The notes below the pieces were generated by a model. It saw nothing but the letters and a program-made list of their open reading frames with translations, did no database searches and was not told the DNA's origin. Positions 1 through 53,442 of a stretch of DNA of 64,000 nucleotides are shown here, piece after piece. Source of the DNA: a virus (lineage: Duplodnaviria; Caudoviricetes). The stretch spans positions 1 through 64,000 of IMG/VR virus record IMGVR_UViG_3300028887_000079, one strand, 5' to 3'. Numbering within the stretch: position 1 is the stretch's first letter; each line of letters begins with the position of its first letter. The translations under genes and the position numbers were made by a program.

Positions 1-1229
1 ACGCGTGCGCCGCCAGCACCGAGGGTATCGTATGCGGCTTTCCAAGTAGGATACACGCCATCCTTGCTCACCGAACCATTTTCCGGATCCATAGAATACA
101 CGGTATATTCGGTAGATTCGAACTTACGCTTCGATTCATCACCCGCCGGGTCAAATCCGGAGTCTTTGATGATGCGCTTGCCCTGCTTGAGAACCATCGG
201 AATCGGGGAACCTGAACCCCAATCGAAATCAAAGTGGTCCCAAACTTCTTCGGCGGAGTCATAATCATCGCGATCATCCCCGTCTTCGTCAAGGAGGAAT
301 TGAACCGCCTGTTCCAGCGCATCCGCATCGTCCTTCGCGGTGAAGGTTTCTTTATGCTTGGAATTTCTTAGATCAGCGCGAGTAGTGGGGCGGCGTTCAG
401 CCGCGGGCGCATTGTCCCACCAAGTAAAGGTGTAAGTGCTTGCGCCTTCCGTCTTCGATTCATCATTGAACCAAGTTTCGATAGCATACTCCGCCATCTC
501 GGCGGGGCTGTAATCATTGTTTGCCCAATTGTCCTTGATGAATTGGAGCCAGTCTTCGGTATTCAAAATCAACGCGTAAGCCTTTTCCCAGCCGTAAGGG
601 CCCCACTGAGTTTCAAATTCCTCCTTGAATTGCGCAAGGTAGTCATCAAATTCGGAGCTTTCCTTCACGGCGGATTTGCCGAGAACCAGCATTGCGAACA
701 TCTTGGCAACGCCTTCAAGCCCGGTCACATTGGTCGGGCAGTCGATGCGGTTGTTCGGATGTTCAAAATACTTGTAGGCGATCTTGAAGTTGCCATCGCC
801 GAGCGGGCTGTAAACATAGAGAGTCAGGTAGGCGCCGTTGTCCGGCATATCCTTGTCGACCACTTCCACATACGGATAAACATCATCATAGGTGCGCACC
901 GCATAATCAAGGTCAACTGAATCTTCCAGCTCGTTTTTCAAATAGGTGGCGAGAAAGTCGCGGACCGCGTTGGCGGTGCCTATTTGGGTGTCCGTGGGAG
1001 AGGCAACCTTCGCCTCATCCGGATTGATGTCGGTATCAAGTTCGTCCGCAATCTCTTCCGGGGACTTGCCCGCCTTGAGTTGCGTGCGGATGTAGTCATC
1101 GTAATAGGACATCAGGTAATCGACCTTGTTATCGTCCATATTGCGGTCCAAGAAAATGTCCGCGATAATGTCCATCGAGCGTTCGATTTCGCTATCATTC
1201 TTTGCTTCAAATCTTTTCTTGAAATACAT
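1..1229 (-). CDS. Acidic orphan protein, partial (runs off the window start); candidate internal head/cargo polyprotein
   Basis: Not in the ORF track. Manual translation from ATG 1229 gives MYFKKRFEAKNDSEIERSMDIIADIFLDRN..., open to position 1. Preceded by ATGTATTTTT motif (~1259-1268). Confidence 0.8.
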   Translation of the reverse strand, partial: MYFKKRFEAKNDSEIERSMDIIADIFLDRNMDDNKVDYLMSYYDDYIRTQLKAGKSPEEIADELDTDINPDEAKVASPTDTQIGTANAVRDFLATYLKNELEDSVDLDYAVRTYDDVYPYVEVVDKDMPDNGAYLTLYVYSPLGDGNFKIAYKYFEHPNNRIDCPTNVTGLEGVAKMFAMLVLGKSAVKESSEFDDYLAQFKEEFETQWGPYGWEKAYALILNTEDWLQFIKDNWANNDYSPAEMAEYAIETWFNDESKTEGASTYTFTWWDNAPAAERRPTTRADLRNSKHKETFTAKDDADALEQAVQFLLDEDGDDRDDYDSAEEVWDHFDFDWGSGSPIPMVLKQGKRIIKDSGFDPAGDESKRKFESTEYTVYSMDPENGSVSKDGVYPTWKAAYDTLGAGGAR

Positions 1230-1316
1230 TGTGCAGGCCTTGGCAAATGGTTTCTCTAAAAATACATTCATTCGCCGCAAGAGCCCACTGTCACCTTAAA
1301 ATGGTATATTAGTCCC

Positions 1317-3146
1317 ATGGAATATGCAAAAGAAGATTTGAAGAAATTGTCCACCCGCGAACTCTACGCGGCGGCGGCCGCTGCCGAAGGATACTCATCC
1401 GTTCCGGTGGACATTGATACGTTTTTGGACGACCCTTACTATTTAGGCCAAACCTACGGCGGACACGTTTATCAGTATTGGCGTGATGCGCTCCACAAGA
1501 TTTATCCGAACCCTCTGTATTCCCCCTATATCGAAATTTGTATCACCGGCTGTATCGGTGCAGGTAAAACGTCCGCCGCCATCATGGGCGCCCTTTATGA
1601 TTTGTATCATGTAACGCTGCTGAAGGAACCGCAGCGCAAATACAAGCTTCTTTCCATTACGCGCATCATCTTCTCGCTTGTTACCGCTACCAAGGACCTA
1701 GCGTCCGCCGTTATGGCAAACCAAATGCTTGATGTTATTGCCGCGTCCCCTTATTTCTGTTCCAAGTTTATGCCGAAGAAGGGCGAAAAGCTGGACGAGG
1801 ACATGTTCCCGCATCATGTTGGCGTAGGCTTCGGATCACGCGGCGGACACAACTTAGGTAAGGCAGTTATCGGCGCCATCATTGATGAAGCGAACTTTCA
1901 GGAGGCGGTTGCCGACCAGGCGGTGAAGAACTATGAAACCATCACGCGCCGTATGAAGTCCCGTTTCATGCTCAAGAACGGATCCCTGCCGTGTAGGCGT
2001 TGGCTTGTATCTTCCCGTAACGGCGACTCGTCATTCCTTGAATCCCATATCGAAGCGGTGAAGGACAACCCCGATGTGCTTGTCTTGGCGCCTGCTATGT
2101 GGGATGTTCAGGCGGAAAAGGGAATCTACAGCGGCAAGACATTCCCCGTCTTTATCGGGACCAATACCGAACAGCCGATGATTTGCACCACCGAGAAGGA
2201 GGTGGACGACCACGCTGGCTACATTATTGATGTCCCCGTTGAATACCGAAGCGACTTCGAAGAAAACCTCCCCGGCGCCTTGATGGATATTGCCGGCGTG
2301 GCGAGCCGTTCATCGATGTCCCTTGTTTACAATGTGGAGAAGTGGATTAAGTGCCAGTCGCTTGATAATGCGGTCTCGAAGGACGAAATCACGCTTTCGC
2401 TCGATGGCGATGACGACCTGATGGACTATGTGAAGAAAGATTTGCCGCCGCTTAGTTACTATGTCCATCTTGACGGCGCCTTGAAAGGTGACCGCTTCGG
2501 CTTTGCAATGTCCGCCGTTGAAAAGCAAATGGCGGTGACCGGAAATGATTTCTTGACCGGCGCCAAAACTGTTCGCCTGATGCCTTCGCTCGTCACCCCG
2601 ATTTGTTTTGGTATCAAGGCAAGGCCCGGATCCGAAGTGCCGCTGTGGAAGGTGCGCAAGTTCCTGCTTGACTTGAGAAACAAAGGCGTGCGCATTATGC
2701 AGGTTTCAACCGATGGATTCCAATCCGCCGACATGCGCCAAATGCTTGCCAAGATGGGATTCGAGGTGAAGTATGTGTCCGTTGATACGACAAAGGAGCC
2801 CTACCTTCAATTCGCATCCGGCATCAACCACGGAACAATCAAGGTGCCGAAGAGCGACATCTTGGACTTTGAGGTGCGCAACCTTCAAAACCAAGAAAAG
2901 AAGATAGACCACCCGATGAAGGTGATGGTCAACGGCAAATATGTCAAGGGTAGCAAGGATATTGCGGACGCTGTCAGCGCCAGCCAACACGAGGCGCTTA
3001 TGGCGGCACAGACCCTTACTCAGGCGTCAATCACCTCCCAATACAATGACAACCCCTACATGACAATGAAGGACCGCCAAGACTATGTCCAAGATTTGAT
3101 CTTTGGGCAGATCTTAGGGAATCAGGCGCCCAAGAATATGTATTAG
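1317..3146 (+). CDS. terL: Terminase large subunit
   Basis: Walker A GCIGAGKT, Walker B AIIDE, RNase H-like nuclease acidic motifs (YVHLDGA, STDGFQS, KIDHP...SKDIADA); 609 aa. Confidence 0.9.
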   Translation: MEYAKEDLKKLSTRELYAAAAAAEGYSSVPVDIDTFLDDPYYLGQTYGGHVYQYWRDALHKIYPNPLYSPYIEICITGCIGAGKTSAAIMGALYDLYHVTLLKEPQRKYKLLSITRIIFSLVTATKDLASAVMANQMLDVIAASPYFCSKFMPKKGEKLDEDMFPHHVGVGFGSRGGHNLGKAVIGAIIDEANFQEAVADQAVKNYETITRRMKSRFMLKNGSLPCRRWLVSSRNGDSSFLESHIEAVKDNPDVLVLAPAMWDVQAEKGIYSGKTFPVFIGTNTEQPMICTTEKEVDDHAGYIIDVPVEYRSDFEENLPGALMDIAGVASRSSMSLVYNVEKWIKCQSLDNAVSKDEITLSLDGDDDLMDYVKKDLPPLSYYVHLDGALKGDRFGFAMSAVEKQMAVTGNDFLTGAKTVRLMPSLVTPICFGIKARPGSEVPLWKVRKFLLDLRNKGVRIMQVSTDGFQSADMRQMLAKMGFEVKYVSVDTTKEPYLQFASGINHGTIKVPKSDILDFEVRNLQNQEKKIDHPMKVMVNGKYVKGSKDIADAVSASQHEALMAAQTLTQASITSQYNDNPYMTMKDRQDYVQDLIFGQILGNQAPKNMY

Positions 3147-3147
3147 T

Positions 3148-3240: not shown

Positions 3241-3672
3241 TCATTTATCCGCTCCTTTTTCGGCTCCTTTTTCCGCTCCCTTTTTATAGGCGGCGGCAAT
3301 CTTTTTGATGAGGGCGGCGGTCAGGTCCTTACGACTCGTAATGTCAAAGCGTTCGTCACCCGCAAAGATCGAGCCTTCAAATTCCGGATAGCGCTCCGGA
3401 TTCGTTCCGCAGTCAATGTCGAACTGAATCGTATCACGGACGCCGGAATGAATTGTGTATTTGTAGCCGCTCGTGCCTGCTGCGCCGTTAATCAATTTCG
3501 GATCGGCGAAGGAACCGATTTCATCGTGCAGGTCTTCCAGCCACGTCTTGAAAAGGGTGAGGCGGTAGATCAGGTTTTGGAAGTCGAACCTTTTGGAATC
3601 TTCTTCCGCGTCCGCGAAGTCAAACGAATTGGCTTCATTCTTCTTGGCTTCATACTGCTTCTTGATATACAT
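3241..3672 (-). CDS. Orphan protein with leader MYIKKQYEAKKNEA (putative internal head protein)
   Basis: Start moved to ATG 3672 behind AAAGGAG RBS; C-terminal KGAEKGAEKGADK repeat. Confidence 0.7.
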   Translation of the reverse strand: MYIKKQYEAKKNEANSFDFADAEEDSKRFDFQNLIYRLTLFKTWLEDLHDEIGSFADPKLINGAAGTSGYKYTIHSGVRDTIQFDIDCGTNPERYPEFEGSIFAGDERFDITSRKDLTAALIKKIAAAYKKGAEKGAEKGADK

Positions 3673-3683
3673 TGGCTGCTCCT

Positions 3684-4019
3684 TTACCACGCTTCCGGAT
3701 CGGGGAGGTAGTCGCTGAGGATGCAATCGCGGTCGGATTTTGATTGGAAAGCAAACAAGGTGTCGCTGCCGCCAATCGCAATCAAATACGGATAGTCAAG
3801 ATCCATAATGCTAGAGACAGAGGAGAAACACGTTGCATCGCCATCCCATCCGGATTCTTCGCCGCCGTTCTGCGCGTTTTTGTATTGGGCGTGGATGTCC
3901 CAAACGAGATCGGTCAACCCCGCTTCATTGGTGAAGCCGGGGACGTAGACAAGGTCCTTCTCTACGGTCGGCAGCTTGGTGAGCTTTTCTTGAGTCTTCT
4001 TGATAAGTTTGATTCCCAT
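3684..4019 (-). CDS. Orphan protein with leader MGIKLIKKTQE
   Basis: ORF track; GAGG RBS; tightly packed operon. Confidence 0.7.
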   Translation of the reverse strand: MGIKLIKKTQEKLTKLPTVEKDLVYVPGFTNEAGLTDLVWDIHAQYKNAQNGGEESGWDGDATCFSSVSSIMDLDYPYLIAIGGSDTLFAFQSKSDRDCILSDYLPDPEAW

Positions 4020-4028
4020 TTTTATACC

Positions 4029-4844
4029 TCAGTATTCCGGTTCAGGTTCAGGGTTTTCGATAGCGTCAATCACGATATCCTTCATGTTATCCAAGGAGTA
4101 TTCCTTTGCGAACAAATCTTGGGCAAACTGTGCCATTTCATCGCGCGTCTTGAATACCCTGCCATTCTTGACGGCTGCTCTCAACTCTTTAAGGGTCTTT
4201 GTGTATTGGAGCATGTAGTCATCAAAATACGCCATCAAAATACCATCCGCAGTATCGTAATCGAATTCCGGATATTCCGTGTCTTCTTCCGGATAAAGAA
4301 TTTCGATCGCGCTATTGCGCAGGTTCGGGTATATCGTGTATTTGGGGTTGTCCGCACAATAATATGTTCCGAGTTTCGGAGACACCTTGAACATGTCGGT
4401 ATACGTCATTTGCGACAAGGGCTTACGGATCTGTGCGCTCAAATCACTGAATGCCAACGAACCGCCGGGGAAATGTGTCAGGGTTTTTGAGGTATCCACC
4501 GGGAAGTCCGATTCTTTAGAAGGGGTCATCGTCAGGTGGGGACTTGCATACAAGCCAAACTCTCCGGCGCCGGTATATGTTTGAGTGCATTCGCAATCAT
4601 ACACAAATGCGGCGTTGTCATCGAATGCGATGCGAACCTTGAATTTGATGTCAATCATTTGGTCGTCCCGGTCCACATTTGGCTGCTCGTCATAAATTTC
4701 AACAGAGCAACCTTCCGGGATGACATATTCAATTGAATGGAGGATTTTCTCGGCGAGGCCGGTGCTTTCAAGCGTAAGGTCGCCCCAAGTATCCCGTGGA
4801 GGGACATCTTCATTTTTCTTTGAAAAAAGATGAATCTTTGCCAT
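4029..4844 (-). CDS. Acidic orphan protein with leader MAKIHLFSKKNED
   Basis: ORF track; start moved to ATG 4844 just after the upstream stop. Confidence 0.7.
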   Translation of the reverse strand: MAKIHLFSKKNEDVPPRDTWGDLTLESTGLAEKILHSIEYVIPEGCSVEIYDEQPNVDRDDQMIDIKFKVRIAFDDNAAFVYDCECTQTYTGAGEFGLYASPHLTMTPSKESDFPVDTSKTLTHFPGGSLAFSDLSAQIRKPLSQMTYTDMFKVSPKLGTYYCADNPKYTIYPNLRNSAIEILYPEEDTEYPEFDYDTADGILMAYFDDYMLQYTKTLKELRAAVKNGRVFKTRDEMAQFAQDLFAKEYSLDNMKDIVIDAIENPEPEPEY

Positions 4845-5892: not shown

Positions 5893-6834
5893 TTAAGCCG
5901 CGATGCTTTCGACCCACTTGATGATATTGTTCATCGGGGTGGCGATGCTGCGTTCGAAACGCTTTTCCGCCATACGGGCACTCTTCTTTTGGTTGGTGCC
6001 GGAGTAGTGGGTGGCGAAGTCCGCGTAGGCGTTGATCAAGCCCCAAGCGCTGTTGCGGAAGTTGCCGTTGTCGTCCGCGTTGAAGCAGTTGCGGAGGTCG
6101 GCACGCTTCACTTCGAGGCGGCGGAGTTCGTTTTCCTTCAGTTCGCCCTTGATCGGGAAGAGGAAGTCCGCGAAGGCGTCCACGGCGTCCGCACCAACGC
6201 GGAGCGTAGCGAACTTTTCGGCGAGCTTGCTGAACTCGGCCATATAGGCGGCTGCGGTGGACATCGTTGCCTTAGCCTGTTCCAGCTTTTCGGCGGCGGT
6301 GCGGCTGTGGCGGATGCTCACAGCGTTTTCGGCGCTGCGGAAAGCAACGTTGAACTGGTTTTGGCACACAATGCGCAGCGGGTAAATGGCAGCCTTGCAA
6401 ATGTATTTCTTGTTGAACGAGTTTTGGAAGATGAGGTGCGGGGTGATCTCATCGCCAAGGACCTTGATGGACGGCAGGGCCGCAATGAGGTAGTTCAGGC
6501 CGGTTTCGGTTTCGCCGCCACGGAGGAACGTCAAGTCGTCCGTGATATACTGGGCGAAGTCGAAGGCTTCACGGTTCTGAATGATGTGGTAAGCATCGCT
6601 GACCACGCCGTGAATCTTATTGTCCGTGCCGACAACCGCGTTGGTGTTCGGGATGCGGGCGAGGATGCCATCCGGCATCGTGGTCATTGCGGGGGACATC
6701 GAGGCGGTGAAGTCAAGGCCGCATTCGGCGAGGGCTTCATCGAACTTAGAGGTGTTGATGCCTGCTCCGATGGAATCCCAAGTGGCTTCGCGAGCGGAGA
6801 GGGTGGTGACGAGTGCGGTGGTGTTGTTCTTCAT
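5893..6834 (-). CDS. DUF932 / phage-plasmid TIGR03299-like protein
   Basis: Motifs GVVSDAYHIIQNREAFDF, PLRIVCQNQ, SIRHS, SAWGLINAYADFATH; start MKNNTT behind AAGGAAAGAA RBS. Confidence 0.75.
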   Translation of the reverse strand: MKNNTTALVTTLSAREATWDSIGAGINTSKFDEALAECGLDFTASMSPAMTTMPDGILARIPNTNAVVGTDNKIHGVVSDAYHIIQNREAFDFAQYITDDLTFLRGGETETGLNYLIAALPSIKVLGDEITPHLIFQNSFNKKYICKAAIYPLRIVCQNQFNVAFRSAENAVSIRHSRTAAEKLEQAKATMSTAAAYMAEFSKLAEKFATLRVGADAVDAFADFLFPIKGELKENELRRLEVKRADLRNCFNADDNGNFRNSAWGLINAYADFATHYSGTNQKKSARMAEKRFERSIATPMNNIIKWVESIAA

Positions 6835-6984: not shown

Positions 6985-7935
6985 TTAGCGGGCGTAGATT
7001 TTACAGCCGTTTTCGTCCGGATTGCTGGCGCACCATTCAAAAATTTCGGCTTTTTCACGGCTGGAAATAACTAGATCCGCCGTCTCCGGGCGGTTCAGCC
7101 AGTCCCGTGCCACATTTAGATATATGGTCGATACTGCGGGGAACAATTCTTTCAATGCCCGGGGCGCCTGCTTATACTCATGAAAATTCAGTTTGGAGAT
7201 TGTATACGATATGTGGTAGTCCGTGTCCGGAAAAACTGCGTGACACCTTTCATAACTGCGAACAAGGTTAGTCCAGCGCGATCCGCTGCGAATGCGCTCA
7301 TACAACTCCGGCTGAATGGAGTCCACCGAGAATGTGATTAGTTTCACAGCGCTGCGCGTCCTGGCGGATATGCGGCGGATATTATAGTTCGTCCAAAACT
7401 GCATATTCGTTAGAATGTGAATAGGCGCAATGCCGTAGGCAGGCAAATCAAATTCTAGCATCCGCCGATAGTTTTCCGAATAAAATATATCGCCGGATCC
7501 GCCCACCTGATAATATGGCGGTGGCGCATTCAATTTTGAATTGCGTTCGATCGCCGCTGCGCCCAATTCCCCTAGCGCAATCAAGTATGCTTCCATCTCC
7601 GAATCGGACAGCACCGGTTCATTTCGATTGTCTTCATAATGATTAAAGCAGGTGACGCACCGCAGCGGGCATTTTCGCCAAGTGCCGGCGACAATCTCAT
7701 AAATGGGAATCCGCCCCGCCTCAAATGACGGGCACATACTTGGGTTGCATATTGACGCCAGCCCTGCTTCGAAGACTCCCGCATCGAAATGATTGTTGGA
7801 ATAGAATCGGCGCTCTTGAAAGAAAAAGGATCGCGCGACCGGGGAATGGCAACACGGAAGAATGAGGTCTACCGGGATCTTCCCGTAAACATGCGTTCGC
7901 AAACGCTCATAGCGATCGTGGTGCTTGCAATCCAT
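6985..7935 (-). CDS. Radical SAM protein
   Basis: CxxxCxxC (CPLRCVTC), GGSGD, ILTN, FSVDS...YERIRSG motifs; extra N-terminal cysteines. Confidence 0.8.
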   Translation of the reverse strand: MDCKHHDRYERLRTHVYGKIPVDLILPCCHSPVARSFFFQERRFYSNNHFDAGVFEAGLASICNPSMCPSFEAGRIPIYEIVAGTWRKCPLRCVTCFNHYEDNRNEPVLSDSEMEAYLIALGELGAAAIERNSKLNAPPPYYQVGGSGDIFYSENYRRMLEFDLPAYGIAPIHILTNMQFWTNYNIRRISARTRSAVKLITFSVDSIQPELYERIRSGSRWTNLVRSYERCHAVFPDTDYHISYTISKLNFHEYKQAPRALKELFPAVSTIYLNVARDWLNRPETADLVISSREKAEIFEWCASNPDENGCKIYAR

Positions 7936-13140: not shown

Positions 13141-13197
13141 AAAAACTCCAATTTGGGTTTATTTAATATACGGAAAAAGGCGCGTGGCGCCTTTGTG

Positions 13198-17900: not shown

Positions 17901-18201
17901 ACGTTACCCTATACCATTTAATGTCTTCTCCGAAGCGTTCGCACCAAAGAAGGACGTCCTCGTCCGTAGGATAGGCGCCGCCGCATCCGTCCAGCCCAAG
18001 CTTGTTTCGAATCCAAGGATCCGAGATGGCAATGCCAATACGGGACACGGTTTCCGGCTTTTCGCTCCCATCCTTGTAGATGTAGGCATCGAAGCCACCG
18101 AAAAGGTTGCGGTCAAATACCACTGCATCTAGGCGCTCGACCGTAGCCTTAACGCCTTCGTTGTGCGGCATATCAAAAGAATCTTTAGCGTAATGTCTCA
18201 T
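17884..18201 (-). CDS. Hypothetical protein (apparently leaderless)
   Basis: GCGTATATT-AAAGC-ATG. Confidence 0.6.
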   Translation of the reverse strand: MRHYAKDSFDMPHNEGVKATVERLDAVVFDRNLFGGFDAYIYKDGSEKPETVSRIGIAISDPWIRNKLGLDGCGGAYPTDEDVLLWCERFGEDIKWYRVTYGYSN

Positions 18202-18227
18202 GCTTTAATATACGCCGCACGCCTTGT

Positions 18228-18491
18228 TTAATTCAGGCATTTATAGGCGACCGACCAAACATCGTTCATCGCCGTCAATGCCGAATCGCCCCATACCGAG
18301 GCAATCTTTACAACTTGGTTGTCCACCGAAATCTTCACGATGTCATCATCCGGGACGTATTCGAAAGACACATTCTTGCCGACCGCCGCGAAAACTTCTT
18401 CCATTTGGGTGAGCCCCGCTTGAATTTTCCTGGCGTTTGTGATGTCCGTGCTTTCGGACGTTTTCTTTTCATAGCGTTTCTTGATGTGCAT
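18228..18491 (-). CDS. Orphan protein with leader MHIKKRYEKKTSES
   Basis: Own AATGTATTTTT motif and GGAG RBS. Confidence 0.7.
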   Translation of the reverse strand: MHIKKRYEKKTSESTDITNARKIQAGLTQMEEVFAAVGKNVSFEYVPDDDIVKISVDNQVVKIASVWGDSALTAMNDVWSVAYKCLN

Positions 18492-18569
18492 AATTACTCC
18501 GTGTTTCCATAAAAATACATTAAATAAGACCGGGCGCCAACAAGCATCAAATTAAGGTATATTATCAAT

Positions 18570-18980: not shown

Positions 18981-19072
18981 TATTTGCTTGTTATTTGCCA
19001 AATACGCGCATTCTAGCGATATATCTAATAGATACGCGGATTTTTATTTGCCGGTTATTTGCTAAATACGCG
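18968..19072. repeat. Short direct-repeat cluster (TTATTTGC x5, ATACGCG x3)
   Basis: Directly visible in the intergenic sequence. Confidence 0.6.
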
Positions 19073-19486
19073 TTATTCGAAGGGGATGCGGATAGCATCT
19101 AACGGATACTTGCTGTAAATCTTTTCAGCGGCTTCTTCCGGGGAGCCAAGTTCTTGCAGCTGTGCCACATTGAACGTTTTTGTAAATGTGGAAAGATATT
19201 TCCCCGATTGAGGATCGAGGGGCCGCACTTCAAGTTGAACTGTGCGAGGTTTATCGGTGGCAAGAAAAATTGCATCCCCGCCATCCGGCATTTTCAGCCA
19301 AATTTGGTAAGGGCTGCCCGTATCCATAGTCCCGTTCTTTTGATCTAGCCAATAGCGGTCCGAAAAACACTTTTCTTTGCCTGCCATATCAAAATACTTT
19401 TTCTGAATAGCTTTCGCATACGGCTTGGTGAGGTCATTCAAAGATTCGCGCCGTGCTTCATTATGGTATTGTTTGATGATATACAT
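19073..19486 (-). CDS. Orphan protein with leader MYIIKQYHNEARRES; paralog of 52852-53442
   Basis: Shared C-terminal PEExAExxYSKYPLDAI; own ATGTATATTT motif. Confidence 0.75.
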   Translation of the reverse strand: MYIIKQYHNEARRESLNDLTKPYAKAIQKKYFDMAGKEKCFSDRYWLDQKNGTMDTGSPYQIWLKMPDGGDAIFLATDKPRTVQLEVRPLDPQSGKYLSTFTKTFNVAQLQELGSPEEAAEKIYSKYPLDAIRIPFE

Positions 19487-19541
19487 ATCCCTACCTAATT
19501 TCAATGTCTTAAATATACATCGGCGCCAATAGAAAACCCAG

Positions 19542-21182
19542 TTACTTCTTTTTCTTAATCATGTCCGAGATTTTCACGATGTGGGAGTCCGTGCCATCCA
19601 ACGCCGATGCCAAGGCAACCGCCTTCGAATCAAGCTGGTAGGCCATCGTCACGTCAATCGTTCTAGGCGCCACAAGATAATAGACATTGACTGGAACCTC
19701 CTGCCCGCCACGATGCAAGCGGTCTTCCGCCTGCCAGTGGTCCGTAGGCGCCGCAGTGAACTCAACAAAGACGCAATTCGAACAAGCCTTCTGCAAACCG
19801 TCAATACCAACGCCCGCCGATTGAATGTTCGCCACAATCACGCGGATATTGGGATCGTTGATGAATGATTCCTTGATTTTGTCGCGCTGCGCTCCGCTGG
19901 TTTCGCCAGTCAATACATGCGCCCCGATTCCCTTATCTTTCAGGAATCCAGCGATGTCATCCACAACGGCGTGGTGCCACGCAAAGACAAGGAGCTTTTC
20001 ATCGGTGGACAAAAAGTCCATAATCCATTGCTTGCAGGCGTCCGCCTTCAAATCATAGGCGGAACGGAACAGCCCGGCGATGGCGGCGGACTTTTCAAAT
20101 TCGCTTGCCTCGCGTGCCTTCTTCGCCTGCTCGCGGTATGCTTCCATCTTGCCTTTGTCAACCGAGCACGGAACCGTGGTGATGATTTTGGGCGGGAGGA
20201 ACGACATAACCTCAGCCTTCGTCCTTCTCAAGGAACGCGTGGAGAGGAGCGCGTGAAGTTCCGGACCATTTGAAATGCCTTTGTATTCGGTGCCATACGG
20301 ACCGACTTTCGGATTGCAATAGCGATTCGCATACGCATAGAAGTCGGGGAAGGTCCCCGGATCGATTGAATGCAGCGTGGGCCAAAGCTGGACGGGGCGG
20401 CTTCTAGCAGGCGTTCCCGACATTGCCAGCAGGCAAGGAATGCGCGTAGCAAGTCGCATAAACGCCTTGGTTCTTTGGGAGGTGCGGTTTCCGATCGCCT
20501 GCACTTCATCTCCAACCAATGCCTTGAAGCCTTGCGCATAAAAGTTTTGACGTAGCGGGGAGCGCTCCCACTTATAGAGAATGTCCCAGTTGATTACATA
20601 GGACTTGCCCGGTTCGAGTTGATAGGGGCGCTCGCCTGAAAGAACTTCAACGTCATCGCGGCCGAGCCACGCCTTATAGTTTGCCGCCCACTGCCCCTTA
20701 GTGGAGGAGGTAACGACAATCAAGGCAGGCAGGAGGCCGTGATAACGCAGCCACGCCAGCGCCTGAACGGTTTTACCCGTTCCCTGTTCATCGAACAAGG
20801 CAAGGCGCGGGCGGGTCAGGGAGAATTTCAAAAAGTCTTCTTGATAGGGATAGAGACCGGGAAGCACGCGCTCCTTGATATAGGGAGGCGGCGGGCGGTT
20901 CACAATTTCGGGCTCAGGTATTTGCCAGCCCGAGGCACGGCACCAATCCCGCATCTCCTTTGTATTTGGGACAGACCACTTCTTTGTGGAGGAACTGTAA
21001 CGGCGCCCGGGAATGTTCTTGATTGCGTCAAGCACACGGCGCCACGCAACCTGATCTTCGATGTGCCATTCAAGGTTGATCCGGTATTTGTCCAAGTCAA
21101 AAGTATACTTCATGCCCGGTATCACTATCGGGTCGGGGATGGCTTGGGCCTGCAAAAATAAAGGTTTCCGCATGTCAAACAT
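19542..21182 (-). CDS. SNF2/SMARCAL1-like SF2 helicase with N-terminal HARP-like segment
   Basis: LYPYQ, DEQGTGKT, GDEVQ, SGTP, LRRTK, GVGIDGLQ, QAEDRLHRGGQ; N-terminal IKNIPGRRY...KKWSVP. Confidence 0.88.
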   Translation of the reverse strand: MFDMRKPLFLQAQAIPDPIVIPGMKYTFDLDKYRINLEWHIEDQVAWRRVLDAIKNIPGRRYSSSTKKWSVPNTKEMRDWCRASGWQIPEPEIVNRPPPPYIKERVLPGLYPYQEDFLKFSLTRPRLALFDEQGTGKTVQALAWLRYHGLLPALIVVTSSTKGQWAANYKAWLGRDDVEVLSGERPYQLEPGKSYVINWDILYKWERSPLRQNFYAQGFKALVGDEVQAIGNRTSQRTKAFMRLATRIPCLLAMSGTPARSRPVQLWPTLHSIDPGTFPDFYAYANRYCNPKVGPYGTEYKGISNGPELHALLSTRSLRRTKAEVMSFLPPKIITTVPCSVDKGKMEAYREQAKKAREASEFEKSAAIAGLFRSAYDLKADACKQWIMDFLSTDEKLLVFAWHHAVVDDIAGFLKDKGIGAHVLTGETSGAQRDKIKESFINDPNIRVIVANIQSAGVGIDGLQKACSNCVFVEFTAAPTDHWQAEDRLHRGGQEVPVNVYYLVAPRTIDVTMAYQLDSKAVALASALDGTDSHIVKISDMIKKKK

Positions 21183-22377: not shown

Positions 22378-22520
22378 AAATATAACTTTTTTTAGTCCTT
22401 AAAACAATGACTATTTGCGAGATGAAAAAGATATTGCGAGAGCAGGCAGTTCGCCAGTCCGCATCTTATAGGAAAGCGCATATAATATACGGCGCCTTGG
22501 CTGGATGGGAATAGAGTCCG

Positions 22521-22553
22521 AAAAAGAAATACGCCCCGATGAAGGGGCGTATT
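22521..22553 (-). terminator. Intrinsic terminator
   Basis: AATACGCCCC-TTCATC-GGGGCGTATT followed by TCTTTTT on the - strand. Confidence 0.75.
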
Positions 22554-22571
22554 ATTTAACAGAAGGGAAAC

Positions 22572-23441
22572 TTACCATTTGGACAAAAGGACTTCTGCGA
22601 TGTCCTCTTCACTCTTGCAGGCCGCCAAACGGGCATTAACCTTGTCGGCGACATCTTTAGTGATTTCATAGCCATCTACAGGGACAATTTCCATTTTAGA
22701 AAAGAGAGCGCTTTGCGTAAGAAGATTGCTGCCACGCCCATTATGCATAATACGCCCTGTGGGGGAATAAAGGGCAAACGCAAATGTAGGATGCCCGCCA
22801 ATATCAAGGTAGGCGGTAATGTCGGAGCGATCGCGATCGGTAACATCCCACATCGTGCGGGCATCAATTACACTGCGCACATCACTCCATTGAAACGGAG
22901 CGGTTTCTTTATATGTCTTGCGCTCGGCAGAAGTTTTTGCAACTTGGCGCATAAATTCTTCTTGATAAGCAAGAACCTTGGCGGCATCGCCTTCCGGGTC
23001 GTCCGTGATGGAAATATCATCATAGTGATCCTTCCACAATTCAGTGTATTTTTGATTAAGATGCCCGCCCGGATAATACGTGGCGCCTGCTTCATCTATG
23101 CGCCCTTGCGGTTGGATAATGCCCTTCTCAAAAACGGTATATGCCTCAAATTGGGAGCAAATGGTTCCTTTTTCATACGGCCAATCCTCATTCGGGAGAA
23201 GGCAGCAATATCGGACCTCTTTATATTTATTCCCTTCGCCAAATGTCGTTTCGGTTTTCACGTCTCCGAGATAGTTGCCATCTTTTGGCGCTCCCTTGGC
23301 AAGGGCGTTTACATAGCGAGTTTTCCATTCTAGGACGGGTATACCGATTTCCTCAAACAACGCATCGATAGCAGCTTCCCGCTGTTTGTATTTGGGTAAC
23401 GCTTTTGCTTCATTCTTGGAAAGAAGGCGAATGTGCGGCAT
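22572..23441 (-). CDS. Orphan protein with leader MPHIRLLSKNEA
   Basis: Stand-alone unit with own GGTATATTAG motif, GGAG RBS and terminator; more AT-rich codons. Confidence 0.75.
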   Translation of the reverse strand: MPHIRLLSKNEAKALPKYKQREAAIDALFEEIGIPVLEWKTRYVNALAKGAPKDGNYLGDVKTETTFGEGNKYKEVRYCCLLPNEDWPYEKGTICSQFEAYTVFEKGIIQPQGRIDEAGATYYPGGHLNQKYTELWKDHYDDISITDDPEGDAAKVLAYQEEFMRQVAKTSAERKTYKETAPFQWSDVRSVIDARTMWDVTDRDRSDITAYLDIGGHPTFAFALYSPTGRIMHNGRGSNLLTQSALFSKMEIVPVDGYEITKDVADKVNARLAACKSEEDIAEVLLSKW

Positions 23442-23463
23442 ATAAAATCTCCATTGTTTTCAA

Positions 23464-23994
23464 CTAATATACCTTTTTAGGCTGGCGTTTCCCACTAGGC
23501 GCCGGGGAAAATAAAAGGACAGCGCTGCCCCACTTTGTGGCGCCTATCTTATGCACGGACAACTTGTATCGCCGTGCCATATGACGCCAAAACTTTTCAG
23601 CCTCCTCATCCCAGCACCACAAATAAAATGTTGAGCCATACAGGTCCATAAAACGGGACAACAATGTGTGCCCCATTCCGCTTGTCCCTTTCGCCGTATC
23701 GAAATCCCCTATGTGCCAAATAGGGCCAACCTTGTAAGTTTCATTCCATTCTTCAAACCAATATGTCATCGCGCCTTTCAACTTCCCCTTAACGGAAAGT
23801 ATCATAAATTCACAAGAATAATGCGGCTGTTCGAAGGACTGCTTGAACAAAACGGATTTGAAAGAATGAAGACCGCCGAGACGGCGGATCCTTTTTAAGG
23901 CGCTGTCCCAAGATGTTGTGTGCCATTCATCAAAGCGGATCTTACTAACGCGGCGGCGCGATGGCGAAGATTTATGCATTCTAGTCGCGCACAT
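23464..23994 (-). CDS. Putative GNAT-fold acetyltransferase
   Basis: HIGDF...GTSGMGHTLL (motif A-like), AEKFW (motif B-like); start uncertain. Confidence 0.45.
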   Translation of the reverse strand: MCATRMHKSSPSRRRVSKIRFDEWHTTSWDSALKRIRRLGGLHSFKSVLFKQSFEQPHYSCEFMILSVKGKLKGAMTYWFEEWNETYKVGPIWHIGDFDTAKGTSGMGHTLLSRFMDLYGSTFYLWCWDEEAEKFWRHMARRYKLSVHKIGATKWGSAVLLFSPAPSGKRQPKKVY

Positions 23995-24196
23995 CCGTGT
24001 CCCATGAATTGTATTTGCGATCGGGGATCAAATTACCATCGCCGTAGGCCACGCTGCAGCGGCCGAACCATATTCGCGGAATGATTGTCGGGAGAATTGG
24101 TCCGTGCCAAAAGAATCCGAAAGATCCCCACCAATAGCCGAAGCCGCCGCTTGTGGAGAAAATGCGTATCGGCTTAAATCGTTTTAGTCTTCCCAT
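23981..24196 (-). CDS. Small aromatic-rich hypothetical protein
   Basis: Abuts the polymerase stop codon. Confidence 0.45.
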   Translation of the reverse strand: MGRLKRFKPIRIFSTSGGFGYWWGSFGFFWHGPILPTIIPRIWFGRCSVAYGDGNLIPDRKYNSWDTDVRD

Positions 24197-26985
24197 TATT
24201 GCCTCATGCGAACTTCATCGCAAATGTGTTTGTCAATTTCAAGCCAGTTCTCTTCGCCCGGTGCAATGCAGCCGTTCGTTGCCGCGTTCTCCGAGAAACC
24301 CAAGGCGTGTTCCCCTCCCATTTCTGCCCAGCATCCCCCATCCTCGGATACTTCGGCTTCAATGACAAGGGGAACCGCAATCCACTTGAAGTTGTGCATA
24401 ACCTTGACAACGCCGTTCTTATACAAGATGTCCTCGACAATCTCCTGCTCCTCGGACTTCACAAGCAACACAATAGCATCGTGAATCTGTCCGATAATGC
24501 GGCTCTGTAAACCAAGCCTTTCAAAGTCGTCAAGGTCATCGCCGAGCGCCTGCAACAGCGTGTGGAAACCGGATCCCTGAATGCAGCGGTTGGCGCATTC
24601 GGTGAACGACATCGGGCCATAGCAGCGACAGCCCATATATCCTTCCACATAGCCGTTCTTTTGATAGCGCTGCCATTCGGCATTGCGCCATTCGTTGTAG
24701 ACCTTGAAGCGCTCGTTCCAAAAGATCGAGTCAGCCGTTTTGACGTGGTCAAGAAATTGCGGGTAGTTCCGGATGCCGTGTGCCGCCAAATTCTCCTTCG
24801 CGGTATCCGGCATCTTTGCCCACATTCGCTCGGCACAATGCTTATAACTGGCACCGTAGAAACTGGAGAACACATAACCGGTCTTGATGGACTGGCGCTC
24901 CAATTTCGTCACCTCTTCCGGCTTGCGCATATACATGTCCGCCGCAGTATCGCGGTGCATGTCGGAACTTGGGTCTTGCAGGTATTTAAGCATACTCGGG
25001 TCGTGATGATAACTGGCGGACACCATAACTTCAAGTGACTTGTAGTCCGCTTCCATATACTTCCAGCCCGGCGGGGCAATGAACAGCGAGCGCAAAATGT
25101 GCTTCATGACTTTATCGCGCTTCGGAATGTTTTGGAAGTTCGGCGAGTCGGCGGAGGAGCGGTATGTTCTCGGGCCGCCACTTTCACCGCCGGAACCGGT
25201 GGACAAGTTAAAGAACGGGCGGATCAAATAACTTCCGGTCGGGGCATCAAACATTGCCTCGCGGTCATAGCCCTTAATAAAGGTCTTCCCGATCTTCGCA
25301 TACTTGCGCATTTGAAGAATGTTTTCGGAGAGCGGGGTGTTCAAGGATTCAAGGTATTCAACATCAAACGATTTGCCCTCGGCATCCTTTTCGGAAATTG
25401 TGCCGTTCATTATAAATAGTTTCTTGAGGTCGGCGGGCGAGTTCGGATTGAGTATTGCGGCGTAGCGCTGCATATACTTCTTCGCATCGTCCGAATTGAG
25501 GATGGCGTTGAGCGCCTCCTGACGCTTTGCCTCGACTTCCGCCTTCGCGATTTCCACCTGCTTTTTATCCATAGGCAGGCCGCCGCTTTGAACCTTGGAG
25601 AGCGTAACCATCCCGCGCATGAAGAACTTGAAGAATTCCAATTCATGCCCCACCATTTGCTTTTCTTGGATGTCGCGGATCGGCAAGGTGTAGATGGAGT
25701 CCTGACCGCAGTAGTTCGCGATTTGGAACCACGGCACGCGCTTATCATCCGCAAGCCTATTCAAGGCATAGCACGATTCGTTGTCCTCGCCCGGCATACA
25801 CTGCGACATGTAAGGGTCTGCATCGGTATCATAACCGATAATGCCGAGTTCAGTGTAGGTGTGGAATTTCAAGCCCACCTTTTGGTTGTTGTTGAGAACG
25901 TGGGCGCCAATGCAGGTATCCCAGTCCCAATTCAAAGGCCAGTCCGTTACGGTTCCGTGTAGGCCTGCCTTGAAATGGGTCCAGCAAGTTTCGAAGTCCG
26001 CCTTATGCGCGACAAGGCCAACCGGGGAACCGGGCTTGAAAAGTTCGTGCCAAGCATTGATAAGATTTTCGTTGTCCTGATCCCACTTGAAACCGATGCC
26101 GCGATATTTGCCATTCGCACGCCAAGCAAGGGAACCGGCGACAATGCGCTGTTCCGGGCGGTGCGGCTTAATGCCGGTGGTTTCATAGTCTATTGCCATT
26201 GAGGGGTGCGGGTCGTATTGGAGTGCTTCCTGAATGGCGGCACGGATCCAAGACGCAGCCTCGTCCGGATTAACTGTGGTTCGCAAGTCATTTGGAATTT
26301 CGGGGAAAGGCTTGTTAACAAGTTCCAGCGCCTTTTCGATGTGCGCAAGACGTTGCTTGTAGTAGGCGTTGTCTTCTTCCGCCTTGCGTCTCATCGCCTG
26401 CATATAAGGGCAACCCCAAGTCGGGCAAATCCACGCATTATAATAGCGGTCGGGGATGGTCTTGCCAAAGAAGTCATCCGCCTTCACGTTTGAAATACGC
26501 CCGGACAATCTCGGACCGATCACACCCCAAGTCGCCACGATGCCAACGGGGACGATCACCTTCGGTTTATACTTTGCAATGACATCGGCGAGGAACGGTT
26601 GCCCCGCTGCCGCAGTTTTAGTATCGAGCGCGGTGCCTGAAGTCTTCCACGGCACTGCATTGACGAATGCGAACTGGTCAAACACATCGGACGCATCCAT
26701 ACCGATTTCGCGGAACGCATCCCACAATTCCTTGAAGCGGGGAGACTGGAGCGGGCGGTTGCCATCCTCTATAATAGAAGGCCCGGCGACCTGGCGCTCC
26801 CACGGCTTCGGCAGGTTAACAGTGTATTTTTCCGAAAGCGGATAGTCGCCGACAAATAGAATCCCGCCGGACATATTGCCGACAACGGGGCTTGATGTTA
26901 TACCATTTGCTTGGGGCGGAACTACGGCTTGCTTCTTTTTCGTATCTTGTTTTTCAGGCGCGATGCCTAAATTAAAAAAGCCCAT
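24196..26985 (-). CDS. Family A DNA polymerase with N-terminal uracil-DNA-glycosylase-like domain (SPO1-type)
   Basis: N-terminal ILFVGDYP..FVNAV..KPKVIVPVG; exonuclease IDYETTG, HKADFE, YCGQD; polymerase RSSADSPNFQNIP, EADYKSLE, DMH, RQSIK...FYG, NRCIQG, IHDAI. Confidence 0.92.
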   Translation of the reverse strand: MGFFNLGIAPEKQDTKKKQAVVPPQANGITSSPVVGNMSGGILFVGDYPLSEKYTVNLPKPWERQVAGPSIIEDGNRPLQSPRFKELWDAFREIGMDASDVFDQFAFVNAVPWKTSGTALDTKTAAAGQPFLADVIAKYKPKVIVPVGIVATWGVIGPRLSGRISNVKADDFFGKTIPDRYYNAWICPTWGCPYMQAMRRKAEEDNAYYKQRLAHIEKALELVNKPFPEIPNDLRTTVNPDEAASWIRAAIQEALQYDPHPSMAIDYETTGIKPHRPEQRIVAGSLAWRANGKYRGIGFKWDQDNENLINAWHELFKPGSPVGLVAHKADFETCWTHFKAGLHGTVTDWPLNWDWDTCIGAHVLNNNQKVGLKFHTYTELGIIGYDTDADPYMSQCMPGEDNESCYALNRLADDKRVPWFQIANYCGQDSIYTLPIRDIQEKQMVGHELEFFKFFMRGMVTLSKVQSGGLPMDKKQVEIAKAEVEAKRQEALNAILNSDDAKKYMQRYAAILNPNSPADLKKLFIMNGTISEKDAEGKSFDVEYLESLNTPLSENILQMRKYAKIGKTFIKGYDREAMFDAPTGSYLIRPFFNLSTGSGGESGGPRTYRSSADSPNFQNIPKRDKVMKHILRSLFIAPPGWKYMEADYKSLEVMVSASYHHDPSMLKYLQDPSSDMHRDTAADMYMRKPEEVTKLERQSIKTGYVFSSFYGASYKHCAERMWAKMPDTAKENLAAHGIRNYPQFLDHVKTADSIFWNERFKVYNEWRNAEWQRYQKNGYVEGYMGCRCYGPMSFTECANRCIQGSGFHTLLQALGDDLDDFERLGLQSRIIGQIHDAIVLLVKSEEQEIVEDILYKNGVVKVMHNFKWIAVPLVIEAEVSEDGGCWAEMGGEHALGFSENAATNGCIAPGEENWLEIDKHICDEVRMRQ

Positions 26986-43737: not shown

Positions 43738-44472
43738 TTAAACGTCCTTTGTGGTTGGATCCCAAAAATACTTGTGCTGCTGAAGTTGGCAACAGAAGTT
43801 TCCGTCCGGATGGTTGAGGACAAACATCGGAATATGGGACATAGTGACCTTGCCGAAACTCGGACTGATGTAGATCGGGGTCGGCGGGGCGAGACGTTCG
43901 CGCACGGCGAGGACATCATCGAAGTCGTCATCCGCAACCACACACTTCACAATGTCCCAAGGACGGAGCAGCCCAAGGTTTTCGGGAAGCATCTTGTCCA
44001 ACATCTTGGAACTGGAGCACTTCCAGTCCATAATGAAGTGGACGAGAACCGGATACGGCGCATTGAGGGACGTGCGCCATTCAACCATCTCCTTCAGCGG
44101 CACTGCGCCGTTGGTTTCGAAGTCGATGTCAAATCCGGCGCCAAGCAGCATGTTGCCGAGGACCTGCATCCAAGGGACGTTTTCGGGGAGGAGCGGTTCG
44201 CCGCCGGTGATGGTCACGTGGCGGATATACTCGCCCGCCAATTTCGTGATTTGGGCGAAGGCTTCTTCCGGCTGCATTTCAAGCAGCGGGCGGTCGTAGA
44301 GTTTGTTATACACCGCGGGATTCCAGCTTTCCGGCGTATCGCAAGGATAGGCGCATCTCAGATTGCAACCGTAGGTGCGGAGAAAAATAGTGGGGCGGCC
44401 GGCGTGATAGGCCTCCCCATCAATGGACCTGAAAATGTTGATGATTTTAAGGCTGTTCATATTACCTTCCAC
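43738..44472 (-). CDS. queE: 7-carboxy-7-deazaguanine synthase QueE (radical SAM)
   Basis: IFRSIDGE..GRPTIFLRTYGCNLRCAYPCDT, VTITGGEPLL, ETNG, MDWK, QLQQHKYFW. Confidence 0.82.
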   Translation of the reverse strand: MEGNMNSLKIINIFRSIDGEAYHAGRPTIFLRTYGCNLRCAYPCDTPESWNPAVYNKLYDRPLLEMQPEEAFAQITKLAGEYIRHVTITGGEPLLPENVPWMQVLGNMLLGAGFDIDFETNGAVPLKEMVEWRTSLNAPYPVLVHFIMDWKCSSSKMLDKMLPENLGLLRPWDIVKCVVADDDFDDVLAVRERLAPPTPIYISPSFGKVTMSHIPMFVLNHPDGNFCCQLQQHKYFWDPTTKDV

Positions 44473-47655: not shown

Positions 47656-47684
47656 TGTAAAACTCCTTTGATTTAATATACGGA

Positions 47685-48593: not shown

Positions 48594-48620
48594 AGGCCTT
48601 AATATACGGACAAGTTGTCG

Positions 48621-49215: not shown

Positions 49216-49335
49216 ATTTCTTTCCTTGAACCGGGACCGCTGGATCGCCGCCCCGCCACTATAATATACATTCGTTGTTTGAAAAAGACACCCCGTATTT
49301 CGAAATCAAATATGGCGATTTTAGCGAAATTTCGC
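49216..49335 (-). promoter_or_regulatory. Conserved early-type promoter, copy 3 (leftward)
   Basis: GGGGTGTCTTTTTCA (49294-49280)-N11-TATATTAT. Confidence 0.8.
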
Positions 49336-50470: not shown

Positions 50471-50471
50471 T

Positions 50472-50681: not shown

Positions 50682-50690
50682 GAGGCACAA

Positions 50691-51062: not shown

Positions 51063-51071
51063 GGAGGCAGT

Positions 51072-52242: not shown

Positions 52243-52490
52243 CTGATGAAGAATTCCAAAAGGCGCCGGACTGGTCTTACTGGACCCCGAAGCGCATCCT
52301 CAAGAAGAAGTGCGATTGCCCGGACTTCTGTGAACGGCGCGTGGTAGGATGCGGCTATGATGGCAGCAAGCTGTATCTGTGCAAGAACTGCGGCCAAATT
52401 TATGAACTGAAAGAGCTCCGCACGATCCGCTTGCAGCCTACCCCGGCGGTTGCCGCAAAACTGAGACAATGCGAAAGGAGGATAAAATGA
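52239..52490 (+). CDS. Zinc-ribbon protein
   Basis: CPDFC...CKNCG; ATGA overlap. Confidence 0.55.
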   Translation: MTDEEFQKAPDWSYWTPKRILKKKCDCPDFCERRVVGCGYDGSKLYLCKNCGQIYELKELRTIRLQPTPAVAAKLRQCERRIK

Positions 52491-52822
52491 GCGCGTATCC
52501 TAAACAAACAATCATGATTTGCACGAAATGCGGATTGACCGAGCCGCAAACCAAACAGAACGAAACCGGCTATTGCAGCCGCTGCGATGCCTTTCATATG
52601 GTCGCGAAGGCTGGAAAGCGCGTCTATTTGACGGCGGATGAGATCCAAATCATCAAGAAGGCGATGGACGCCTATTTCGACCACTGCGGCGAAGTCATTG
52701 CGGACTACAAGGAAAGCGAAACCCTGGAGATGCAGCATACGGACTTTGAAACGGAGAACTATCATGAAGCATTCCACGATCGGGATGTAATCCGGCTCTC
52801 GTTGACGCGCAAGCTCAAATAA
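52487..52822 (+). CDS. Zinc-ribbon protein
   Basis: CTKC...CSRC; AGGAGG RBS. Confidence 0.6.
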   Translation: MSAYPKQTIMICTKCGLTEPQTKQNETGYCSRCDAFHMVAKAGKRVYLTADEIQIIKKAMDAYFDHCGEVIADYKESETLEMQHTDFETENYHEAFHDRDVIRLSLTRKLK

Positions 52823-52851
52823 TATATTTTTGAAGAAACTAAGGAGGCATC

Positions 52852-53442
52852 ATGTCCCGCATAAAACTCATTAAAAATGAAGCAAATACCCCAATATCTG
52901 CAGCGGATGTCACTGCCGCGAATGCCGAAGACTTTGTCGGCCAAGTGTTTCACCTGAGGAGTGATTCCTCCTACACAGCATCTATCATTGGCACCGGCAA
53001 AACATTCAAGGGCGAGGATGTTCTCCTCCTTGATAATGGCAAAGCGGTTCCGGTCGCCAATTTCCAAAAGGCTTACATGTCCGATGCGGATCTTCAGCAA
53101 CGCCGAGATGTCAGCCAGCATGTAAATGACTGCGTGACCGCCATCATTAAAAAATACCGCACCGAAGCACAAAAATTAAAAATGAGTCCCGGCCCCCTTA
53201 CCGGTGGCGATAGTAAATGGCGACATGAAACCACATTCACCATTAAATACCCGGACGCCGGCGAAATCTCCGTAATGGGCGCCCGCGGCTACGGGATTGA
53301 CGGGACAATCAAAATCGGGCAGTCTAAAACGGAAATTCGCGCAACGGATCTTCGCGTAGACCGCAACACCCCCGAAGAATTGGCGGAGTGGGTCTATTCG
53401 AAATATCCTCTTGACGCCATTGTCGCGGGATACGGCGCATAA
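52852..53442 (+). CDS. Orphan protein with leader MSRIKLIKNEA; paralog of 19073-19486
   Basis: Own ATATATTTTT motif, AAGGAGG RBS, shared YSKYPLDAI. Confidence 0.75.
   Translation: MSRIKLIKNEANTPISAADVTAANAEDFVGQVFHLRSDSSYTASIIGTGKTFKGEDVLLLDNGKAVPVANFQKAYMSDADLQQRRDVSQHVNDCVTAIIKKYRTEAQKLKMSPGPLTGGDSKWRHETTFTIKYPDAGEISVMGARGYGIDGTIKIGQSKTEIRATDLRVDRNTPEELAEWVYSKYPLDAIVAGYGA

Follow-up and report, generated by a model that had tools for sequence, protein, structure and literature searches.

In phage T4, the first 10 residues of the internal protein IPIII suffice for packaging, and this propeptide is removed by the prohead protease gp21, which cuts after Glu in L/I-x-E (PMC9026906) and uses H85 and S140 as catalytic residues (PMC12991175). 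The T-even internal proteins are diverse and share only this capsid-targeting sequence (CTS) (PMC3012670). In giant phages, gp21 homologs cut after S/A-x-E or A-x-E (PMC9026906, PMC10052503), and C-terminal self-processing is known for gp21 and for gp245 of SPN3US (PMC9026906, PMC10052503). Here we describe a family of short basic leaders ending in Glu, carried by dispersed and mostly unrelated genes of an uncultured phage that recurs in cattle-gut metagenomes from many studies. The stretch studied (the window) is the first 64 kb of one 131,711-bp contig, IMGVR_UViG_3300028887_000079. Known here from sequence alone, the leader is probably a T4-style capsid-targeting propeptide cut after Glu, borne by a variable set of proteins and extended to polyproteins jointed at the cut sites.

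The two ends of the contig overlap by 160 nt with 2 mismatches (window 1-160 versus genome 131552-131711). The genome is therefore circular or circularly permuted, and the open reading frame (ORF) that starts at 1229 on the minus strand really encodes 535 aa and crosses the junction. The gene set used throughout was a crude call of 199 genes over the complete genome. Comparisons were made with two complete relatives, G001 (127,987 bp, protease identity 87%) and G002 (134,991 bp, protease identity 69-70%), both of the direct terminal repeat class in IMG/VR.

The leader family and its two forms

A sequence-only reading of the window had picked out eight ORFs with leader-type N-termini. All of them translate as described, from starts at 1229, 3672, 4019, 4844, 18491, 19486 and 23441 on the minus strand and at 52852 on the plus strand, and each has a Shine-Dalgarno-like motif 6-10 nt upstream. 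About 11 further members lie outside the window, such as those beginning with MAKIKLIKNEG, MAKIKLAKKNEA and MFIKKRFEAKKRNEE, so that the complete genome holds about 19 leader genes among roughly 200 (about 10% of genes). The outside members include three genes between the portal and protease genes, the gene of an acidic 150-aa protein between the protease and capsid genes, a run of five at genome 112298-116357 and three at 127390-131154, which adjoin the 1229 gene across the junction.

The leader is composed of two parts, a basic amphipathic address and then a predicted cut site, (K)-(K/T/R)-(N/S)-E↓(A/S/G), in which the arrow marks the predicted cut. Two types were distinguished. Type A reads M-(Y/F/H)-I-K-K-(R/Q/K)-(Y/F)-E↓(A/K/S) and is often followed by a second ..K-N-E↓ site; type B reads M-x-(K/R/H)-I-(K/H/R)-L-x-x-K-N-E↓(A/G/S/D). 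Among 40 non-redundant leaders, the residue behind the site (P1') is most often A (23 leaders), then S (7) and G (5), and the P3 residue is most often K (25), then T (7) and R (5). Glu occupies P1 in all 40 by construction, as the rows were anchored on the Glu site and are not independent in this respect; the finding is that 40 leaders have such a site. Features of Sec, Tat or lipoprotein signal peptides were not found in the leaders, which have 8-16 residues, are Lys-rich and contain no hydrophobic core (about 10 or more residues).

Comparison with shuffled N-termini had been set beforehand as a test, and the excess expected from the sequence-only reading was observed: 11 of the 199 proteins have KNE[ASGD] within their first 20 residues, versus a mean of 0.22 and a maximum of 3 matches in 1000 within-protein shuffles. 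The motif is 22 times denser in this N-terminal stretch than in the rest of the proteome. The two-part rule (address plus Glu site) matches 16 true starts, namely 15 called starts and that at 1229, and none of 1,781 other ATGs with at least 40 open codons in any frame; since the rule was derived from these data, this result is a control and not an independent test.

Behind the leader, the mature parts are mutually unrelated by BLASTP, barring two exceptions. One is the paralog pair 69223/70433. The other is an 18-residue C-terminal motif, ..EE-x-AE-x-x-YSKYPLDAI, common to the 19073-19486 and 52852-53442 proteins (window 19073-19130 (-) and 53380-53442 (+)); no further copies of it were found in this genome or the two relatives, and it may represent either a propeptide at the C-terminus or a small module common to both proteins. 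The leader itself is retained in homologs that are 43-60% identical. It is conserved as a peptide while synonymous codons vary freely, which indicates that selection acts on the peptide.

Leader swaps, module joints and the head genes

The two leader types exchange on orthologous cargo in three cases. The window 3241-3672 protein has a type A head, whereas type B is found on its orthologs, which share 47% identity with it from ..KNE↓A on. The window 3684-4019 protein has type B and its G001 ortholog type A. In the third case, the protein of genome 70029-70424 carries type B and its G002 counterpart type A.

Six module families link leader genes to longer proteins: the module begins at P1' behind the leader in one phage, and elsewhere it is internal in a longer protein, where it stands exactly behind x-(N/S/T/M)-E. 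The junction ..EKNE↓AVLNRITM of a 93-aa G001 protein recurs as ..ERKSE↓AVLNRITM in a 402-aa protein of this genome (127390-128598) and in a 211-aa G002 protein. Similarly, ..KTNE↓ASTFIRGG (genome 69223-70029) has its counterpart in a 506-aa G002 protein, where ..VANE↓ATLMIRGG stands at residue 247 (60% identity over 260 residues), and ..NVRE↓GNSGSLEINSG has one in a 252-aa G001 protein, with ..HANE↓GNSGSLEINSG at residue 134. Two window genes are involved as well: ..KTSE↓STDITNARKI (18228-18491) is found as ..NKTE↓ATDIANARKI in a 183-aa G002 protein, and ..KKNE↓DVPPRD (4029-4844) recurs in other phages, as ..KKME↓AVPPRD in proteins of 415 aa and as ..GKNE↓AIPPRD in one of 371 aa. The sixth family is a weaker case. 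Glu stands at P1 in 8 of 8 internal joints, versus about 8% Glu among residues, and neither an uncleaved tag nor a translation signal would give a reason for it. These joints constitute the strongest of the indirect evidence for a Glu cut site. Since the same putative cut site joins modules in the longer proteins, cargo could be encoded either as separate leader genes or as polyproteins cut at maturation.

The head module contains a candidate enzyme for such cutting. The capsid protein matches the Pfam family Gp23 above cutoff and the PHROG major head protein. The predicted prohead protease matches the PHROG head maturation protease (4e-19), and tblastn ties it to genes that carry the annotation 'prohead core protein protease' or 'prohead core scaffolding and protease'. 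In all, 1,669 homologs of the protease were counted. When aligned by hhalign with the gp21 of a T4-like cyanophage, it gave a probability of 95.5% and an E-value of 1.4e-8, with the GH and VSSRG motifs aligned; residues His88 and Ser142, which fall on these motifs of the cyanophage protein, are invariant across 97 homologs. An AlphaFold2 model from the 97-row alignment had a predicted local distance difference test score (pLDDT) of 88, that from a 3-row alignment being unusable (pLDDT 44). With the former model, the top three Foldseek matches in the Protein Data Bank (PDB) were the T4 gp21 chains of 5JBL (E 3e-6, probability 1.0, target-normalised template modelling score, TM, 0.68-0.70). This entry was the only clear PDB match of the model; herpesvirus proteases came lower in the list. 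The protease sequence had no match among PDB chains, and the T4 protease family was not listed for it by Pfam at E-values up to 10, the assignment being made through PHROG, hhalign and the fold. On sequence comparison and the predicted model, the protease is a member of the T4 gp21 family, with the gp21/herpesvirus-assemblin fold and a catalytic His and Ser. Furthermore, a K-x-E site is conserved in its orthologs some 70 residues from the C-terminal end, which fits the C-terminal self-processing of gp21 and SPN3US gp245.

Leaders are also present at the positions of core genes. The acidic 150-aa protein occupies the scaffold slot, and the three leader genes between portal and protease occupy the T4 gp67/68 slot; in both complete relatives, leaders are found likewise at the scaffold and core slots. 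By capsid and protease, the closest cultured relatives are Rhizobium RHph_TM30-like phages, Ralstonia RP13, Vibrio Va2, E. coli EP_H11/IME392 and YerA41, with an identity of just 25-45% over the conserved half of these proteins, and megablast with 6 kb found no match, and hence no near relative, in the phage collection. In RP13 (L008) and EP_H11 (L007), the capsid protein, a protease-scaffold fusion and several small head-module neighbours start with short leaders, ..(I/V)-(N/D)-E↓(A/S). Data on N-terminal processing in relatives were not found in the literature on YerA41. Within the head module of the present phage, an internal KNEA at residue 37 of a 365-aa protein (genome 71761-72858) was considered as a cut site and ruled out, as it is not conserved in orthologs.

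The leader genes turn over much faster than the others. Full-length orthologs were found in G001 for 6 of the 19 leader genes versus 105 of 145 other genes (p = 0.001), and in G002 for 7 of 19 versus 93 of 145 (p = 0.026). In other cattle-gut strains, contigs diverge beside the 19073-19486 cassette, with loose ends at 18929/18965 and 19422/19458; this indicates that a stretch with the 19073-19486 gene and part of the preceding spacer is replaced between strains. In other cattle-gut runs the cassette has a lower depth and lies on a short separate contig.

Proposed capsid targeting and the alternatives

The sequence-only reading had proposed a distinct capsid-targeting-like leader, and this is supported, indirectly but convergently, by the gp21-family protease and gp23-like capsid, the leaders at scaffold and core slots, the swaps, the joints at Glu and the fast turnover. 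In such a system, the basic amphipathic address would bring the protein into the scaffolding core during prohead building, where the acidic scaffold-slot protein, with its Glu runs, is a candidate partner of the address. Once the shell is closed, the gp21-family protease would cut after Glu and free the mature protein inside the head. Scaffold-like members would then be degraded or expelled, polyproteins would be cut into modules at maturation, and single-site cargo would stay with the DNA in the head and probably be ejected with it into the host. Cleavage, head targeting, retention and injection are what we infer by analogy with the T4 CTS. The proposal that the leader loads a variable set of effectors into the head stood in part: a non-T4 leader on variable proteins was found, and it behaves like a capsid-targeting or prohead-protease propeptide, but not all members are effectors, because the set includes probable scaffold and core proteins.

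Several observations weigh against capsid targeting. The phage's own capsid protein has no basic leader, its sole candidate site being a conserved ..RQLE↓S at residue 24, and the G001 homolog of the 52852-53442 protein is without a typical leader. Neither the L/I of T4 nor the S/A of phiKZ nor the A of SPN3US is seen at P3 in the leaders; as K, T or R at this position is unlike known gp21-type sites, the cut specificity is only assumed. In T4 the internal proteins are basic, whereas most of the mature cargo here is acidic (pI 4-5). In addition, the two-part leader rule was fitted to the same data on which it is tested, which makes its score partly circular. Prediction of a complex between the protease (residues 21-262) and the N-terminal 40 residues of the 52852 protein scored 0.00 and speaks neither for nor against the interaction.

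As to the content of the cargo, no known domains were found by Pfam and PHROGs in the leader proteins, their polyprotein relatives or the large genes at 112298-130268, except for a weak ParB-like nuclease domain (ParBc_2, E 2.7e-4, below cutoff) in the leader protein beginning with MFIKKRFEAKKRNEE.. (genome 130279-131154, L004:18279-19154 (-)). For two cargo proteins, the ESM Atlas gave no usable match, and structure matches were at TM below 0.35 on a low-confidence model. Metatranscriptome contigs from two runs of one study cover 18186-18487 and other parts; as RNA libraries can hold DNA and contigs give no level, we do not take this as expression. The lack of RNA contigs over 19005-19800 and 22422-24000 carries no meaning.

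An anti-defence role of the cargo is a guess. It is made plausible by the precedent of T4 IPI, by the rapid turnover and by the likely presence of 7-deazaguanine in the DNA. The phage has genes for GTP cyclohydrolase I (FolE), which lies inside the head module, QueC and QueE, and from this gene content it probably makes 7-deazaguanine-modified DNA, which would be a likely target of modification-dependent restriction; a transglycosylase (DpdA-like) gene was not identified in the genome. A wider proposal, which we put forward tentatively and hold to be possible rather than probable, is a plug-and-play platform in which any module with either tag, or behind a K-N-E joint in a polyprotein, would be loaded, cut free and injected, so that about a tenth of the genome would encode fast-evolving injected effectors, some of them directed against host defence as would suit a phage with 7-deazaguanine in its DNA.

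The alternative that survives best, although we judge it unlikely, keeps the protease and gives up delivery. The leader would be a removable propeptide with no addressing role, holding proteins inactive or soluble until maturation, or its bearers would all be core or scaffold proteins that are degraded and expelled. The leader on the scaffold-slot protein and the several internal Glu sites of some members agree with this, and T4 gp22, gp67 and gp68 are handled so (PMC9026906). However, most members have N-terminal sites only, cutting alone needs no conserved address in two interchangeable forms, and nineteen fast-changing scaffold proteins would be without precedent.

It is quite improbable that the leader stays uncleaved and serves in assembly as a tag, such as a short beta-strand docking variable proteins on a common virion partner in the baseplate, the tail or the head surface. 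Although the alternating hydrophobic and basic residues suit a strand, and large unannotated genes, probably structural, surround the leader clusters at 112298-116357 and 127390-131154, such a tag leaves unexplained the invariant Glu with its small neighbour, the tandem Glu sites and the x-N-E found exactly before internal modules. Known anchor domains are, moreover, much longer than the leader.

Recognition by a modifying enzyme, such as a radical S-adenosylmethionine (SAM) maturase, was suggested by a weak radical-SAM protein (6985-7935) near the 3241-4844 leader array; we hold it to be very improbable, this weak protein being the only one nearby. It reaches no curated cutoff (its twitch-type radical-SAM match has 29.8 bits versus 170), no SPASM or RiPP (ribosomally synthesized and post-translationally modified peptide) maturase family was matched, and the other radical-SAM gene of the phage is QueE. 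The leader genes are found genome-wide, most of them far from 6985-7935, and are tied to the head module, and the leader has no conserved Cys, Ser or Thr target pattern. The weak radical-SAM gene (6985-7935 (-)) adjoins a gene of the DUF932 / TIGR03299 'phage/plasmid-like protein' type at 5893-6834 (-), and the pair is kept in three relatives (L009, L011, L012).

Finally, shared N-termini that have no function at the protein level, arising from a translation-initiation preference for A-rich codons after ATG or from recent recombination that copied 5' gene ends, would agree with the A-richness of Lys-rich starts and with the promoter-like element before each stand-alone gene, but this idea is largely refuted by the varying synonymous codons, the Asn-Glu-Ala part, which is not A-rich, the retention of the leader in diverged homologs and its absence from the control ATG frames.

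Genome context and comparison with known systems

The AT-rich motif that the sequence-only reading had assigned to the leader cassettes is indeed present before five of these genes (Table 1), but it is a general element and not specific to the cassettes. GTATATTW occurs in 14 copies in the window versus 1.9 expected, nearly always intergenic, just upstream of a gene and in the same orientation. Genome-wide it precedes about 35 genes of every class, including those of helicase, polymerase, nuclease and portal, and its role as a special mark of leader cassettes was thus ruled out. It is a general promoter-like element of the phage, likely of the -10 type and possibly read by a phage sigma factor; for the stand-alone leader genes it indicates no more than that they are transcription units of their own. 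A longer element, GGGGTGTCTTTTTCAAA-(4-5 nt)-(G)AATGTATATTW, was found in three copies (window about 49262-49300 (-), genome about 83030-83067 (+) and about 88030-88066 (+)), which may define a distinct, perhaps early, class of promoters that head divergent gene blocks.

Table 1. Positions of leader genes, promoter-like elements and associated genes (arrow, predicted cut; strand in brackets)
Feature	Position	Size	Description
Leader gene	window 1..1229 (-)	N-terminal 409 aa of 535 aa	type A, MYFKKRFE↓A; protein continues to genome position 131173
Leader gene	window 3241..3672 (-)	143 aa	type A head + second site, MYIKKQYE↓AKKNE↓A; orthologs in relatives type B, MGIKLVKKTNE↓A
Leader gene	window 3684..4019 (-)	111 aa	type B, MGIKLIKKTQE↓K; G001 ortholog type A, MYIKKKYESKHE↓K
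Leader gene	window 4029..4844 (-)	271 aa	type B, MAKIHLFSKKNE↓DVPPRD
Leader gene	window 18228..18491 (-)	87 aa	type A, MHIKKRYE↓KKTSE↓S; sits among replication genes
Leader gene	window 19073..19486 (-)	137 aa	type A variant, MYIIKQYHNE↓ARRE↓S
Leader gene	window 22572..23441 (-)	289 aa	type B, MPHIRLLSKNE↓A; homolog 43% identical retains M-HIK-FRKNE↓A
Leader gene	window 52852..53442 (+)	196 aa	type B, MSRIKLIKNE↓A
Promoter-like element GTATTTTT	window 1258..1265 (-)		before 1229 gene; variant of GTATATTW
Promoter-like element GTATTTTT	window 18511..18518 (-)		before 18228-18491
Promoter-like element GTATATTT	window 19511..19518 (-)		before 19073-19486
Promoter-like element GTATATTA	window 23465..23472 (-)		before 22572-23441
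Promoter-like element ATATATTTTT	window 52822..52831 (+)		before 52852-53442
Other GTATATTW sites, examples	window 13164-13171, 27001-27008, 47674-47681, 48600-48607
Prohead protease	genome 67348-68364	338 aa	T4 gp21 family
GTP cyclohydrolase I (FolE)	L001:8446-9135 (-)
QueC	L001:16869-17576 (-)
QueE-like radical SAM	window 43738-44460 (-)		ryptide maturase match (E 1.9e-4) belongs to this QueE-like protein

Among the other genes, those of a family A DNA polymerase, a RecA-like protein, an SNF2 helicase, an SMC/Rad50-like ATPase, a tail sheath, a baseplate hub and an endolysin lie in the window, and those of the portal-like protein, GTP cyclohydrolase I, the head maturation protease and the Gp23-type major capsid protein just outside it. 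These recognisable genes show the phage to be a myovirus whose head module is distantly of the T4 type. The family A DNA polymerase (window 24196-26985 (-)) has 929 aa, of which the first ~500 have no Pfam match. YerA41, Carin-5 and RP13, distant relatives by head genes, feature in work on T-hypermodified DNA phages and PolA-UDG fusions (PMC13697223). Besides a normal set of seven tRNAs, two odd tRNA-like genes lie at genome 80092-80475 (L002:92-475), where ARAGORN called 4-base and 2-base anticodon loops.

If the capsid-targeting reading is right, the T4 principle would not be a T-even peculiarity but an old, repeatedly re-invented delivery route for phages with gp21-type proteases, used here on about 10% of the genes. 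The rule of address plus K-N-E↓A would then pick out candidate injected proteins in a phage whose proteins are otherwise uncharacterised, and give a short list for anti-defence screening, and the cut sites would be suggested as recombination-tolerant joints for the shuffling of cargo modules. Host enzymes of the cyclic-oligonucleotide-based anti-phage signalling system (CBASS) are reported to sense gp21-type proteases via decoy loops (PMC12991175), to which a likely specificity for K at P3 in such a protease would be relevant. The leader might also be used as a packaging tag for engineering, once the host is known.

The closest likeness is to the CTS of T4 IPI, IPII, IPIII and Alt: in both cases a short N-terminal propeptide (10-19 aa in T4) stands on unrelated, poorly conserved proteins (PMC9026906, PMC3012670). 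As in T4, the last residue of the leader is Glu and the next residue is small; the genome also encodes a gp21-family protease together with a gp23-type capsid, and the cargo set varies between related phages. The differences concern the leader, its bearers and the cargo. P3 is K, T or R here and L or I in T4 (motif from PMC9026906). Two interchangeable leader types are used, about 19 bearers are dispersed genome-wide, the replication module included, the cargo is acidic where that of T4 is basic, and the predicted cut site doubles as a polyprotein joint. The leader has no evident sequence likeness to the T4 CTS: that of IPIII reads MKTYQEFIAE, and just its final Glu is in common with the leader.

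In phiKZ, 201phi2-1 and SPN3US, many head proteins are likewise cut after Glu by a diverged gp21 homolog, the protease trims its own C-terminal part and some propeptides have multiple sites (PMC9026906, PMC10052503); in the present phage such cutting is predicted. Most propeptides on the head and ejection proteins of these phages are long (111-254 aa), and they do not form one common short tag as the leader does. The genome described here, of 131 kb, also differs from those of giant phages, and no virion RNA polymerase was noted in it. The Dar anti-restriction proteins of phage P1 are packaged in the head and delivered with the DNA (PMC9024508), which is similar to what the leader proteins would do if they are packaged as we propose. 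The P1 system is not known to use a shared cleaved N-terminal tag. As far as its sequence features indicate, the leader system would work like the CTS and gp21 of T4, in a new lineage and not as a new category.

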